The position numbers were made by a program, and so were the translations under genes. DNA of 32,000 nt, from assembly GCA_030167145.1 (NCBI GenBank), contig CP126532.1:2460001-2492000 (forward strand), written 5' to 3'. This stretch comes from Ktedonobacterales bacterium (GTDB lineage Bacteria; Chloroflexota; Ktedonobacteria; Ktedonobacterales; JADMIN01). Below the pieces are notes generated by a model, which was given only the letters and a program-made list of their open reading frames with translations, did not search any database and was not told where the DNA came from. Position 1 is the first letter of the stretch, and each line of letters starts with the position of its first letter. Positions 1,375 through 28,585 of this stretch are shown in pieces.

Positions 1375-1489
1375 ACTCGTATGGTATTCTTAAAGCATAC
1401 GTGTTGTCAAGAGGGAGAAGGCCATTCATCCCCCGCTCAAAAGACGGGGGCTTTCTCGCCTGTTTTTGTAACTGTCATCCCATCCGTAG

Positions 1490-1508
1490 GGGCGTCCGGT
1501 GGACGCCC
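1490..1508. repeat. REP-like GC hairpin GGGCGTCC-GGT-GGACGCCC preceded by CCGTAGGGG
   Basis: Perfect 8-bp stem with a 3-nt loop, read directly. It lies about 115 nt upstream of the tnpB start. Related motifs occur at 181-189 (inverted) and 9018-9042. Confidence 0.6.
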
Positions 1509-22436: not shown

Positions 22437-23705
22437 ATGATCGTTATTGACCGTGTAGCCCTGGCGCTCAGCGATCCCATCCGCCTGCGCATTCTCGATC
22501 TGCTGGCGGCGGGGCGCGATGCCGCATGCTGCTCGCCCGCGAACGCCGAAGCGCCAGAGGCCATCTGCGCCTGCGATCTGCTAGCCGCGCTGGATATCGC
22601 CCCCTCAAAGCTCTCGTATCACATGAAAGAACTGCGCGAGTCCGGCCTGACGCGCGAGCGCAAACGCGGGCGCTGGCATTACTACACCCTGGATACAGCG
22701 GCGCTGGACGGGTTCCGCGCCGCGCTGGAACAACGCTATCTGTCGGATAGGGCCATGGCCCAGAGGAGAGTTCCCATGTCGAATGATGCGGCGAATACTA
22801 CGGAAGCTGACGCCACGCGAGCCAGCGAGAACGCGGAAATTACCGAGGCCGTGCGGGCGCGCTACGGCGGCATCGCCGTCAGCGTCTTGCAGGGGCAGGA
22901 GCAAGCGGCAAGTTGCTGCGGCGACACAAGCGCCAGCGCGGACGCCGCGTGCTGTGGCGGCAGTGCAACGACGACCGGTGACCGTATCTCAGCGGGCCTC
23001 TACGCGGCGAATGAGCTAGACGGCGTGCCGCTGAAAGCTGCGCTGGCTTCGCTTGGCTGCGGCAATCCCACCGCGCTAGCGGAGCTGCATGCGGGCGAGA
23101 CCGTGCTCGATCTCGGCAGCGGTGGTGGCATTGACGTGCTGCTCTCCGCACGCCGTGTTGGGCCAACGGGCTTCGCCTACGGTCTGGATATGACCGATGA
23201 GATGCTCGATCTGGCGCGCAAAAATGCCGCCGAGGCAGACGCGACCAACGTCGCATTCCTCAAGGGCGACATCGCCGCCATCCCCCTGCCCGACGCCAGC
23301 GTAGACGTCATCATCTCCAACTGCGTCATCAACCTCGCGGCGGACAAAGCGCCGGTGCTGCGCGAAGCCTTCCGCGTGCTGAAGCCGGGCGGGCGCTTCG
23401 CCGTCTCCGATATCGTCATTCACGGCGGCCTGCCAGCCGATCTGCTGGATACCGCTGAACTGCGGCGCGACCTCTCCTCCTGGGCAGGCTGCATCGCCGG
23501 CGCACTGACTGACGAAGAATACCGCTCTGGGCTGATCGCCGCTGGCTTCACCGACATAGACCTCGAAGTCACCCGCCACTACAGCGTTTCCGACCTCGGC
23601 ACGCCGACACCAGCCTGGGTCGCGCGGCTGGGCGACGATCTCGCCACCCGCGTCGTCGCGAGCTTTGCCAGCACCTTCGTCCGCGCCCGCAAACCAACCG
23701 CCTGA
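22437..23705 (+). CDS. arsM: ArsR-family metalloregulator fused in-frame to arsenite S-adenosylmethionine methyltransferase (ArsM)
   Basis: ATG 22437 (SD AGAGGTG). N-terminal wHTH: DPIRLRILDLL, ICACDLLAAL, SKLSYHMKELRESGL, WHYYTL. C-terminal ArsM: Cys pairs SCCG/ACCGG, LGCGNP, SAM motif VLDLGSGGGID, SNCVINL, WAGCIAG. No stop lies between the domains. An internal SD+ATG is at 22762-22778. Confidence 0.85.
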   Translation: MIVIDRVALALSDPIRLRILDLLAAGRDAACCSPANAEAPEAICACDLLAALDIAPSKLSYHMKELRESGLTRERKRGRWHYYTLDTAALDGFRAALEQRYLSDRAMAQRRVPMSNDAANTTEADATRASENAEITEAVRARYGGIAVSVLQGQEQAASCCGDTSASADAACCGGSATTTGDRISAGLYAANELDGVPLKAALASLGCGNPTALAELHAGETVLDLGSGGGIDVLLSARRVGPTGFAYGLDMTDEMLDLARKNAAEADATNVAFLKGDIAAIPLPDASVDVIISNCVINLAADKAPVLREAFRVLKPGGRFAVSDIVIHGGLPADLLDTAELRRDLSSWAGCIAGALTDEEYRSGLIAAGFTDIDLEVTRHYSVSDLGTPTPAWVARLGDDLATRVVASFASTFVRARKPTA

Positions 23706-24276: not shown

Positions 24277-24321
24277 TTGACAGGGCCACTTCCCTTCGCT
24301 ATTATCTCAATATCCATTGAG
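24277..24321 (+). promoter_or_regulatory. Near-consensus promoter TTGACA-17-TATTAT followed immediately by the palindrome CTCAAT-ATCC-ATTGAG (candidate ArsR operator)
   Basis: -35 is at 24277-24282, -10 at 24300-24305, and the palindrome at 24306-24321 covers the predicted +1. The arsR start lies at 24354. Confidence 0.55.
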
Positions 24322-26315: not shown

Positions 26316-26792
26316 ATGGAAGGAACAATTCGCCCGGCGGTGAAAGACGACGTGCCAGCCATCGCCGCGCTGGCTGATGCGCGCCGTCAGCAATATCAGC
26401 GCTATCAGCCGCGCTTCTGGCGTCCAGCGGCGGATGCGCGCGAGCGCCACGAGCCATTCCTCGAACAGCTAGTGACGGGCGACCGCGCCATCGTCCTCGT
26501 GCATGAGCGCGACCATACGGTTGACGGCTTTGTGATCGCGCAGATCGTGCCCACCCCACCGGTCTACGATGCCGGTGGCCCCACCTGTAGCATAGACGAC
26601 TTCTGGATCGCTGCGGATGCCGGCTGGTTAGTTGCGGGCCGCGCGCTGCTCGAAGCAGCGATGACTGAAGCCAGGACGCAGGGCGCGATGCAGACTGTCG
26701 TCGTCTGCGCCTATCTGGATGAACCGAAGCGCGCGATGCTCGCCGAGATTGGCTATACCCCCGCCTCCATCTGGTACGTGCGGGACAATTAA
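26316..26792 (+). CDS. GNAT-family N-acetyltransferase
   Basis: ATG 26316 (SD GAGGAG 9 nt upstream). IRPAVKDDVPAIAAL N-terminus and an acetyl-CoA-binding-like segment AGRALLEAAMTEARTQGA. 158 aa. Confidence 0.78.
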   Translation: MEGTIRPAVKDDVPAIAALADARRQQYQRYQPRFWRPAADARERHEPFLEQLVTGDRAIVLVHERDHTVDGFVIAQIVPTPPVYDAGGPTCSIDDFWIAADAGWLVAGRALLEAAMTEARTQGAMQTVVVCAYLDEPKRAMLAEIGYTPASIWYVRDN

Positions 26793-26922
26793 GTGGGTGG
26801 CCGTTGACTCTTTAGCAACTTCCGAGGACACATCGCATTGCATGCCAGACCCATCCTTGCCCGACTGACTGCAATGTTTTAGAGGCTACTCTCTTAACCG
26901 TGACGCTTCTTTGCAGGGAGGC

Positions 26923-26951
26923 TTGACATTTAAATGCGAGGCAGCTATAGT
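26923..26951 (+). promoter_or_regulatory. Near-consensus sigma70-type promoter TTGACA-17-TATAGT upstream of the 30-bp repeat array
   Basis: -35 TTGACA is at 26923-26928, followed by an exact 17-nt spacer and -10 TATAGT at 26946-26951. The predicted TSS near 26958 is about 22 nt before the first repeat. Confidence 0.55.
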
Positions 26952-26979
26952 TTGCTATGTGGCTGCCAGTTAGTTGAGC

Positions 26980-27135
26980 GTTGTCCTCTCATGCCGCCCG
27001 TGGACGGGCGTTGTCCTCTCATGCCGCCCGTGGACGGGCGTTGTCCTCTCATGCCGCCCGTGGACGGGCGTTGTCCTCTCATGCCGCCCGTGGACGGGCG
27101 TTGTCCTCTCATGCCGCCCGTGGACGGGCGTTGTC
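26980..27135 (+). repeat. Perfect tandem array: 5 full copies plus a 6-nt partial of the 30-bp unit GTTGTCCTCTCATGCCGCCCGTGGACGGGC
   Basis: Units at 26980, 27010, 27040, 27070 and 27100 are 100% identical, and GTTGTC repeats at 27130-27135. Each unit contains the palindrome CGCCCG-TGGA-CGGGCG (the closing G is shared with the next unit). There are no spacers. Confidence 0.97.
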
Positions 27136-27149
27136 AAAGGAGCAGTTGG

Positions 27150-27923
27150 TTGAAGAGAAGGTTTTACTGGGCATTGGCCATTATCAATGCGATGGCCATC
27201 GTTGGGATGACATTTATTCAGGGTAGCATAGCATCGGCCGCTCCGCGATCCCAGGTGTCCTCTCCAATCGTCATTGTGGCTCGTGATACTACTGCCGCAT
27301 CCCATTGTGTTACCATGCGTACCGTAACCTTTCATGGACACACTGTGACACGTACAACCGCACCATGCTTGCCAGGCACGGTTGTCTCGGCAATTCGGGT
27401 TCCTCTTACTGAGGCAATAGCGCGACACGAAATGTACGCCATCTTACCTGCAGCATCAAGTTCGCAGACAGAGAAGGCGCAGATTGAAGCGCGTGTTGGC
27501 ATACTCCTGGCAAATGTTCGCCTAGCAGCACAACAAAGCGCCCACCGAGAAGCTCCGCAGCCTGAACTTGCGTGCGGCAGCACAGGAACAGTATCTGTTT
27601 ACTGGACCCCCAGTTGGGATGCGTCAACTGAGTTCCTTTCGTATACTACGTACCTTCACACGTCGGATTGTAAGTACGCTTACATCGAAGAAACCGACAT
27701 TGAGGAGTACATATATCACATACGCGGGTACTGGCTGAACGCAAAATACGGCGGAAACACCTGGAACTTTGGATGCTCTATAAATCCAGTAGAGGATCCG
27801 CCGGGCGACGTATACTACATTGACCACAATGAAACGCTGGGCTATTACATGGTGCAGACGGTTGCCAATGGGTGTGGACTTGGAAACTCCACAGATACCG
27901 TCAGCATGGGGCCTCTGAATTGA
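27150..27923 (+). CDS. Orphan secreted Cys-containing protein (hypothetical); the ORF is also open upstream to ATG 26934 through the repeat array
   Basis: TTG 27150 has SD AAAGGAG (27136-27142) 7 nt upstream. It opens a textbook Sec signal peptide, KRRFYWALAIINAMAIVGMTFIQGSIASA-AP. The mature part has six Cys. G+C is visibly lower than the flanks. The alternative start ATG 26934 (GGAGG 13 nt upstream) would add (CPLMPPVDGR)x5. Confidence 0.68.
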   Translation: MKRRFYWALAIINAMAIVGMTFIQGSIASAAPRSQVSSPIVIVARDTTAASHCVTMRTVTFHGHTVTRTTAPCLPGTVVSAIRVPLTEAIARHEMYAILPAASSSQTEKAQIEARVGILLANVRLAAQQSAHREAPQPELACGSTGTVSVYWTPSWDASTEFLSYTTYLHTSDCKYAYIEETDIEEYIYHIRGYWLNAKYGGNTWNFGCSINPVEDPPGDVYYIDHNETLGYYMVQTVANGCGLGNSTDTVSMGPLN

Positions 27924-28060
27924 TCTTCCGTGGGCTAGTGATGGAAACGCACTGACCCATTGTTTGATGGATGCGTTCTTCTACAACCGGCAGCCAGAGT
28001 CATTGCTTGCATCTTCGGTTGACACAAATGGTGTCAGTTGTTAGGCCAAGGGAGAAACCG

Positions 28061-28498
28061 ATGGACCGAACCGTGTTGAGCATCAACCTGAATGCACGCA
28101 CTACCCTTCGATTGGCAGAGCTTGTAATGGGCTTGGCTGCTGCCGTCGTCGGCTTAACCGCGCTCTACAACCTGCTCTTTGGGCCAACGTTTGTCATCGT
28201 GCGGCAGACGGGCAGGGTTCCGGGCAGCTTGTTTGACGAACTCCACAACACCGGAACGTTTCCGGCCCTGCTGGTGGGGTTCGGTATCGTGTTCGCCGTC
28301 ATCGCCATCAGCGCGCTCGCACACACGGCGAGCGGGCGCAACGCCAGCCGCATCGTGCTCTGGCTGGCGACGCTGACCCTCGTCGCCCTCACTGCTATTT
28401 GGTATTTCGATGCGGGACTGTTCTTCGTGCCCGGCGCGGCGCTCGCATTGGCAGCCTGCGTCCTCTCGTTAACCTGGAAGCGCGCCGCCTCGCGGTAG
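28061..28498 (+). CDS. Small 4-TM membrane protein (hypothetical); distant paralogue of 9191-9625
   Basis: ATG 28061 has SD GGGAGA upstream. Four hydrophobic spans. The ALAHTASGRNASRIVLWL and FFVPGAALALAACVLS blocks parallel the 9191 protein. Confidence 0.68.
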   Translation: MDRTVLSINLNARTTLRLAELVMGLAAAVVGLTALYNLLFGPTFVIVRQTGRVPGSLFDELHNTGTFPALLVGFGIVFAVIAISALAHTASGRNASRIVLWLATLTLVALTAIWYFDAGLFFVPGAALALAACVLSLTWKRAASR

Positions 28499-28503
28499 CA
28501 CAC

Positions 28504-28548
28504 TGCGCATGGTGCGCATGGTGGGCATGGCGGGCATGGCGGGCATAC
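28504..28548. repeat. 9-bp microsatellite-like repeat, 5 copies (TGCGCATGG x2, TGGGCATGG, CGGGCATGG, CGGGCATAC)
   Basis: Read directly in the 87-bp gap between convergent genes. The last unit forms the 5' arm of the hairpin GCGGGCAT (28539-28546) / ATGCCCGC (28568-28575). Confidence 0.85.
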
Positions 28549-28585
28549 CTTCCGAAAGGCGAAAGACATGCCCGCTTCCCATACC

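Follow-up and report, generated by a model that had tools for sequence, protein, structure and literature searches.

Among the tandem repeats that have been described near bacterial gene starts, two kinds come closest to the element analysed here. In the hmw1A and hmw2A genes of Haemophilus influenzae, heptanucleotide repeats are transcribed into the 5′-UTR, where RNA structure matters and a larger number of copies leads to lower expression; these repeats comprise at least 11 copies of a 7-bp unit, which form one long hairpin with a G-rich arm that is processed by RNase III (PMC12721329). In Mycobacterium tuberculosis, perfect promoter tandem repeats of 54-58 bp have been reported, the copy number of which is phase-variable (PMC12817950). 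A further point of reference is provided by REPs, which are tandemly reiterated together with flanking DNA and whose GTAG-tagged forms have been reported in Chloroflexi (PMC3733652).

Here, we analyse an array of perfect 30-bp repeats that lies ahead of a gene for a secreted protein in the genome of a Ktedonobacterales bacterium. Our literature search for tandem repeats in Ktedonobacteria returned nothing, and a first reading made from the letters of the DNA (the sequence-only reading) had stated that no described element shares this architecture. This statement does not hold, since both transcribed 5′-UTR repeats (PMC12721329) and promoter-proximal perfect tandem repeats (PMC12817950) have been described, and a known kind of element, not a new regulatory device, is the better description of the array.

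The array and its genomic setting

The window, i.e., the whole 32-kb stretch of DNA that was analysed, corresponds to positions 2,450,001-2,482,000 of the 5.07-Mb JGI contig Ga0494333_323. All coordinates below refer to the window, and the features concerned are as follows.

26793-28585, no strand: lower-GC variable islet, from the GNAT gene to the methyltransferase gene, carrying the array and a two-gene cassette
26923-26951, plus strand: predicted sigma-70-type promoter, with TTGACA (26923-26928), a 17-nt spacer and TATAGT (26946-26951)
26978-27135, no strand: array of five complete 30-bp units (26980-27129) plus a partial copy; 158 bp, or 5 × 30 + 8; GC 70%
26995-27130, no strand: 16-bp palindrome CGCCCG-TGGA-CGGGCG, five copies, starting at 26995, 27025, 27055, 27085 and 27115
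27136-27142, plus strand: Shine-Dalgarno (SD)-like AAAGGAG, 7 nt ahead of the start codon TTG 27150
27150-27923, plus strand: secreted-protein gene, 257 aa, with a signal peptide and six conserved cysteines; member of an unnamed family of ~250-270 aa
28061-28498, plus strand: membrane-protein gene, 145 aa, downstream of the secreted-protein gene

The five perfect head-to-tail units reported in the sequence-only reading were confirmed both by TRF, which describes a tandem array at 26978-27135 with a period of 30, 5.3 copies, 100% matches and a score of 316, and by exact matching of the 30-mer GTTGTCCTCTCATGCCGCCCGTGGACGGGC, which is found at 26980, 27010, 27040, 27070 and 27100. Counted over its full length, the array holds 5.27 units at 100% identity with 0 spacers, and the 8-bp sequence GCGTTGTC stands at both of its ends (26978-26985 and 27128-27135). 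The units abut directly, without the unique spacers that lie between the repeats of a CRISPR array. Each of the five palindrome copies can form a local hairpin, and neighbouring copies are able to pair with each other (7 + 7 bp, 14-nt loop). Elsewhere in the window, neither the 16-bp palindrome nor the 30-mer at up to 3 mismatches was found (shuffles gave 0 matches in 100), and no copy of the unit at up to 9 mismatches lies outside the array in the ~36 kb formed by the window and a second locus of the same genome (L001).

The copy number of five comes from one assembly only, the JGI metagenome contig Ga0494333_323 (3300045419), and dependence on a single metagenome contig is what a spurious or mis-counted repeat would have in its favour. 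However, in the Logan assembly (k = 31) of run SRR22113990, one contig ends at window position 27007 and another begins at 27106, these ends being the last and first unique 31-mers around the perfect periodic stretch. The second assembler thus breaks exactly where a periodic stretch longer than k = 31 predicts, and it reproduces both junction sequences. The Logan contigs give no copy number because they break at the array; the break at both array edges indicates that the repeat is real sequence, and an assembly artefact is extremely unlikely.

An 11-nt near-direct repeat flanks the array, with CAGTTAGTTGA at 26968-26978 (plus strand) and its partner CAGTTGGTTGA, which includes the TTG start, at 27143-27153. 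The two match at 10 of 11 positions, a level that was reached in 44 of 5000 shuffles. An interpretation of this pair as the target-site duplication of a MITE was dropped, as terminal inverted repeats are absent.

The islet that carries the array has a GC content of ~55%, vs 64% for the window. To its left lie genes for ArsR, an aquaglyceroporin, an LMW-PTP-type ArsC and a GNAT protein, and to its right a methyltransferase/histidine-kinase pair, the best relatives of which are found in Ktedonobacterales and Chloroflexota MAGs at 50-70% identity. By tblastn, neither cassette gene was detected in 8 Ktedonobacterales/Chloroflexota loci; the only relative in which GNAT stands beside the methyltransferase (L006) has a different gene, encoding a 203-aa membrane protein, in between. 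The cassette is horizontally variable.

The secreted-protein gene, its start codon and its leader

The gene downstream of the array had been described as an orphan in the sequence-only reading, and a word-indexed protein search did match only the gene itself. This appearance was overturned when 1.84 billion representatives were searched exhaustively with phmmer, which recovered a family of 118 cluster representatives at E ≤ 1e-3, of which 50 also pass E ≤ 1e-10. The phmmer alignments begin at residues 1-15 in both partners, and when 37 sequences are aligned their N-terminal signal peptides fall in register with TTG 27150, in agreement with the proposal that a secreted protein with a signal peptide starts there; the cysteines conserved in this alignment are C53, C73, C142, C174, C209 and C242. 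A confident AF2 model of the protein (pLDDT 88, pTM 0.80) had no Foldseek match in the PDB, and searches of Pfam and NCBIfam gave no match either.

Within the cassette, the 145-aa membrane protein is probably co-transcribed with the secreted-protein gene. At the nearest homologue locus (L016), the gene that follows the homologue of the secreted-protein gene (P0002) encodes a membrane protein of ~150 aa with 42% identity to the 145-aa protein, and this shared partner indicates that the secreted-protein and membrane-protein genes constitute a cassette.

Since the unit contains no stop triplets, all three plus-strand frames are open through the array, including that of ATG 26934, which gives (RCPLMPPVDG)n. 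A coding repeat was among the explanations offered in the sequence-only reading; a protein initiated at ATG 26934 would have (RCPLMPPVDG)x5 in front of a membrane anchor. That the ATG 26934 frame is open and in phase with the unit was confirmed as a property of the frame only, and GGGAGG does occur 12 nt before this ATG. However, ATG 26934 is situated inside the near-consensus promoter, in the spacer that separates its -35 and -10 hexamers. Furthermore, a signal peptide opens all 36 aligned homologues, at ~0-25 residues from TTG 27150, and the extra 72 N-terminal codons implied by ATG 26934 have no counterpart in any of the 36. The coding repeat was rejected on this alignment of homologue N-termini to TTG 27150, none of them extended, and we give it almost no credence. 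Judged by these alignments, the true start is TTG 27150, not ATG 26934, nor the ATG 27432 called by JGI, which yields a protein of 163 aa that is truncated relative to the TTG 27150 start.

The promoter candidate TTGACA-17-TATAGT agrees with the consensus in all but one of its 12 positions. Only two sites with at least 11 of 12 matches exist in the 32 kb, vs 0.045 expected, and the second of them, at 24277, is located directly upstream of arsR. The rarity of such near-consensus sites, together with the position of the other one upstream of arsR, led us to accept the promoter at 26923-26951 as probable, and it is likely to be real. Extrapolation from this predicted promoter would place the transcription start site (TSS) near 26958. 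Relative to this assumed TSS, the first unit begins at about +23, the palindromes follow from about +38 and the start codon lies at +193 (+43 without the five units), such that the array lengthens the predicted leader from ~42 to ~192 nt.

The order proposed in the sequence-only reading, from near-consensus promoter through array and AAAGGAG to TTG 27150, therefore holds. The array follows the predicted promoter and precedes both the SD and TTG 27150, which would place it within the transcribed leader, and the homologue N-termini aligned to TTG 27150 make it non-coding; given the predicted promoter, the array is very probably a transcribed non-coding 5′ leader, as had been suggested, with the TSS as extrapolated above. 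A scan found no promoter-like site inside the array. No T-runs follow the hairpins and the terminator scan flagged none of them, and a terminator or attenuator function was discarded on these grounds.

No comparable array occurs upstream of seven homologues (P0002-P0008, at loci L016-L032), and alignment with the leader of the nearest one (L016) revealed no recognisable single-copy progenitor of the unit. The absence of the array from the seven homologous leaders points to a recent, lineage-specific origin. Within the ~36 kb of this genome and the public collections that were searched, the array, as judged by sequence comparison, is specific to the secreted-protein locus and evolutionarily young.

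Folding predictions and possible regulatory roles

As RNA, the hairpin CGCCCG-UGGA-CGGGCG has a predicted folding energy of -11.3 kcal/mol. The plus-strand leader RNA as a whole folds no better than shuffled sequences (z = -0.07). Folding of the minus-strand RNA gives z = -4.2, and no minus-strand promoter or gene context for an antisense role was found. When the array is folded as ssDNA, the predicted energy is -43.5 kcal/mol, vs -31.2 ± 2.9 kcal/mol for shuffles (z = -4.26), and neighbouring palindromes pair with each other.

The sequence-only reading had also proposed that a CCUCUC tract in each unit acts as an anti-SD sequence. Pairing with the SD is retained in our predictions in a reduced form, in which a 4-bp UCCU:AGGA helix joins unit positions 5-8 to the AGGA of AAAGGAG; the CCUCUC tract as originally stated is not. 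In equilibrium folding on the assumed transcript and TSS, the predicted cost of opening the SD is ~2.0 kcal/mol with 0-2 units and ~5.0 kcal/mol with 3-8 units, which suggests a modest, step-like brake on translation with the step between two and three units. If base pairs may span no more than 40 nt, AGGA is predicted to be occluded by the last unit on its own. The predicted SD pairing uses only the last one or two units and hence does not explain five copies.

A selected RNA leader is one reading of these features, in which the hairpins would act as a multivalent platform, offering GGA tetraloops to a CsrA/Rsm-like protein or another RNA binder, or the array would serve as an SD-sequestering device. 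The CsrA/RsmE site CANGGANG presents GGA in a short loop, with one site over the SD, and the hairpins of the array are similar. The locus combines five CGUGGACG hairpins with AAAGGAG, that is, five UGGA tetraloops and a GGA within the SD, as a CsrA/Rsm target would; in addition, the array is very probably part of the transcript, and the predicted UCCU:AGGA pairing amounts to a ddG of ~3 kcal/mol. However, no Rfam family matches at E ≤ 1 and the seven homologous leaders lack the array; the predicted pairing with the SD leaves all but the last one or two units uninvolved, and the plus-strand fold does not exceed shuffles. The CsrB/RsmZ decoys and CsrA-repressed leaders resemble the array in that their hairpin loops display multiple GGA motifs and a further GGA is part of the SD, but those RNAs consist of degenerate units conserved across species and are CsrA-dependent, whereas the array units are identical, unconserved and without an Rfam match. 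More generally, known multi-site decoys and leaders consist of degenerate units, and the perfect identity seen here points instead to recent expansion. Furthermore, csrA itself is carried by only ~30% of bacterial genomes (PMC13443453). Taken together, we regard a selected RNA leader of this kind as unlikely.

The same palindromes could alternatively act at the DNA level as an operator or iteron array, in which a dimeric regulator would bind to five 6-4-6 palindromes immediately past +1 and obstruct transcription. Their perfect 16-bp symmetry and regular 30-bp spacing of about three helical turns, starting from about +38, would suit such a function. On the other hand, no regulator or Rep gene stands beside the cassette, the palindrome occurs nowhere else in the window, and perfect identity of the 14-nt linker is unnecessary for binding. 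A search of JGI metagenome contigs for two palindromes 8-24 nt apart returned one match (L015), and this sole tandem pair, found on an unrelated contig of high GC content, has a different linker and is probably terminator-like. A DNA operator is accordingly very unlikely. The L015 pair was also considered as a possible relative of the array and judged unrelated, its terminator-like hairpins with their different linker being placed after a gene end.

Origin of the array and comparison with known repeat systems

The array shows several sequence properties of a VNTR, namely a spacer-free head-to-tail unit of at least 10 bp, high identity among copies, and a terminal partial copy with microhomology. 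The 158 bp of the array, equal to 5 × 30 + 8 and bounded on either side by GCGTTGTC, carry the hallmark of a tandem duplication primed by microhomology, and the perfect identity of the copies points to recent expansion and not to selection on each site. A slippage-prone copy-number locus had been one of the explanations offered in the sequence-only reading, and it fits best: perfect identity, the 5 × 30 + 8 structure with its 8-bp bracket, the predicted ssDNA hairpins and a second tandem hairpin element in the genome are all in keeping with it. We therefore consider that the array is probably a young, slippage-generated minisatellite (VNTR), with its copy number known from one assembly.

A plausible course of events would start from a 30-bp stretch of leader with a GC-rich hairpin, bracketed by the 8-bp microhomology GCGTTGTC. 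The two microhomologies, 22 nt apart, would prime a first slipped-strand duplication, and the duplicate would then grow to five copies through more slippage or unequal recombination, a process that the strong ssDNA hairpins may aid. As a side effect, the leader would become longer and hairpin-rich, with five stable hairpins added. The consequence may be a copy-number-dependent brake, or rheostat, on expression, since at three or more units AGGA is predicted to pair with UCCU nearby; on these folding predictions, copy-number-dependent damping of expression is plausible.

The unit has a GC content of 70% within an islet of 50-55%, and this contrast, together with the flanking 11-nt near-repeat, gives a hint that the hairpin core was perhaps inserted and is not native leader sequence, which would count against a leader-derived origin.

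The second tandem hairpin element belongs to a GTAG-tagged REP family in the same genome, of the form CCCATCC-GTAG-GGGCGTCCG-G-CGGACGCCC. Single copies are located at 1479-1508 of the window and at position 19327 of L001 (minus strand), and a tandem array of 3.3 copies of 39 bp occupies L001 19616-19744, between sigma-factor and glutaredoxin genes. This tandem array indicates that the amplification of hairpin units recurs in the genome. It also bears on whether the 30-bp unit is itself a REP-like palindrome, RAYT-mobilised or otherwise dispersed, that landed in the leader and was reiterated there. The unit is a short GC-rich stem-loop with a higher GC content than its surroundings and the array is flanked by the 11-nt near-repeat; a real REP family of this genome forms tandem arrays, and REP clusters reiterated with flanking DNA are known (PMC3733652). 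Nevertheless, no GTAG or CGTC tag is found beside the stem on either strand (the flanks being CATGC/GTTG on the plus strand and CAAC/GCAT on the minus strand), and no second copy of the unit is present in 36 kb, in which the GTAG REP sits at three loci.

Searches of public collections also returned 0 matches. The 21-base core pattern of the unit had no exact match in GTDB representative genomes, JGI metagenome contigs or IMG/VR, blastn of the array against plasmid and phage collections gave no match, and Rfam matched nothing in the whole window at gathering cut-offs, nor in 26850-27250 at E ≤ 1. These scans are uninformative on the rest of this genome, because the metagenome set that was searched excludes the source contig and the nearest GTDB relatives are only 50-70% identical in the methyltransferase. 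As the unit lacks a GTAG/CGTC tag and is undispersed in the available sequence, we do not file it as a REP, and an origin by REP mobilisation appears improbable.

Returning to the minisatellite, a separate question is whether its copy number is under selection. The array could be a selected, copy-number-tunable translational rheostat, acting via SD occlusion or via the number of GGA-loop-binding proteins recruited, and hence an RNA-level contingency locus of minisatellite scale in a free-living member of the Chloroflexota. The perfect identity of the copies, the uniqueness of the unit and its absence from homologous leaders argue against long-standing selection, be it for a CsrA-like platform or for DNA iterons, and we think it unlikely that the array is such a rheostat. 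If the copy number proved to be variable and to tune expression, RNA-level repeat rheostats would extend from repeats of 1-7 bp to a 30-bp hairpin module, and from host-adapted pathogens to environmental Chloroflexota, which would widen a known principle modestly and not establish a new one. If the array is an ordinary minisatellite, its value is mainly practical, in that the JGI gene call at this locus is truncated and short-read assemblies break at the array; it would also mean that a Ktedonobacterales genome amplifies intergenic hairpin units.

Compared with described systems, the array shares with the hmw repeats its position as a tandem repeat between a promoter (predicted here) and a start codon, and the folding prediction for the array points in the same direction as the effect at hmw; the difference is that the array consists of five copies of a 30-bp unit, each with a hairpin of its own, and is known from its sequence and from folding prediction. 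With REPs and BIMEs it has in common a short GC-rich intergenic stem-loop and tandem head-to-tail reiteration together with flanking nucleotides (PMC3733652), but its 30-bp unit carries no GTAG/CGTC tag and is undispersed in the 36 kb and the collections searched. The promoter repeats of M. tuberculosis are likewise (near-)perfect head-to-tail units of tens of bp that precede a start codon by a few to tens of bp (PMC12817950). In contrast to the array, which lies downstream of its promoter and whose unit has no promoter-like hexamers, the M. tuberculosis units carry promoter elements, such that copy number equals promoter dosage. The MIRU-VNTRs of M. tuberculosis are further examples of bacterial VNTR, or minisatellite, loci. 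Slippage or recombination creates and alters such loci, which is also the proposed mode of origin of the array, and short-read assemblies collapse them or, as at the array, break there.

The secreted-protein gene and the borders of the array

The gene that follows the 30-bp hairpin array (window 27150-27923) belongs to an unnamed family of secreted proteins of approximately 255 amino acids with six conserved cysteines, which comprises 118 representatives at 50% clustering. Its AF2 model is confident (pLDDT 88, pTM 0.80); Foldseek comparison of this model with the PDB returned no match, and none was obtained for the protein in Pfam or NCBIfam. The JGI call for the gene, made on the metagenome contig containing the window (Ga0494333_323, 3300045419), begins at ATG 27432 and encodes 163 aa, making it 94 codons short.

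An 11-nt near-direct repeat, CAGTT(A/G)GTTGA, lies on both sides of the array (window 26968-26978 and 27143-27153), its downstream copy including the TTG start of the secreted-protein gene. The two copies are identical at 10 of 11 positions, a match reached by approximately 0.9% of shuffles, and no terminal inverted repeats accompany them. The entire array is also spanned by a plus-strand ORF of 59 codons (window 26974-27153, from TTG 26974), whose TGA stop overlaps the real start of the secreted-protein gene as TTGA (27150-27153). Because no SD precedes TTG 26974 and all plus-strand frames of the array are open by construction, this ORF is probably coincidental.

The second predicted near-consensus promoter and the arsenic genes

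In the window, only one other site, TTGACA-17-TATTAT at 24277-24305, agrees with the sigma-70 consensus at 11 or more of 12 positions; it lies just 5′ of the arsR-aquaglyceroporin-arsC operon. Upstream of the ars genes lies a gene for a 422-aa fusion of an ArsR-type HTH and a SAM methyltransferase (6745-8013 of L001, the source-genome sequence that overlaps the window and extends past its end; window ~22437-23705), and a GNAT gene (26316-26792) is found immediately 3′ of arsC. Together, the fusion, ars and GNAT genes may constitute an extended arsenic-resistance island.

Other repeats in the source genome

The source genome also carries a GTAG-tagged REP-like family with the sequence CCCATCCGTAGGGGCGTCCGG(C/T)GGACGCCC, present as single copies and one tandem array:

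Members of the GTAG-tagged REP-like family
Window 1479-1508: single copy
L001 19327-19356, minus strand: single copy
L001 19616-19744 (~window coordinate 35308-35436, just beyond the window): tandem array, 39-bp x 3.3, 96% identity

This tandem array is flanked by a sigma-70-family gene on one side and a glutaredoxin gene on the other, and the family is missing from the loci of Ktedonobacterales relatives. Within the window, a 9-bp motif, GCATGGCGG, is repeated 4.4 times in tandem (28507-28546, 93% identity) in the short spacer separating the convergent membrane-protein and methyltransferase genes.

Loci of secreted-protein homologues

At L028/L032 (GCA_044449905.1, JBIOIK010000072.1), the secreted-protein family is represented by two tandem paralogues, P0005 and P0008. 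Two small genes precede them, one of which weakly matches Frankia_peptide (PF14407). Upstream of another homologue, P0007, and adjoining an OmpR-type (Trans_reg_C) regulator gene, AATCTAACGCA recurs as imperfect direct repeats (11-bp x 4.2) at 1247-1292 of locus L029. This repeat probably represents regulator binding sites, and is of a different kind from the 30-bp array.
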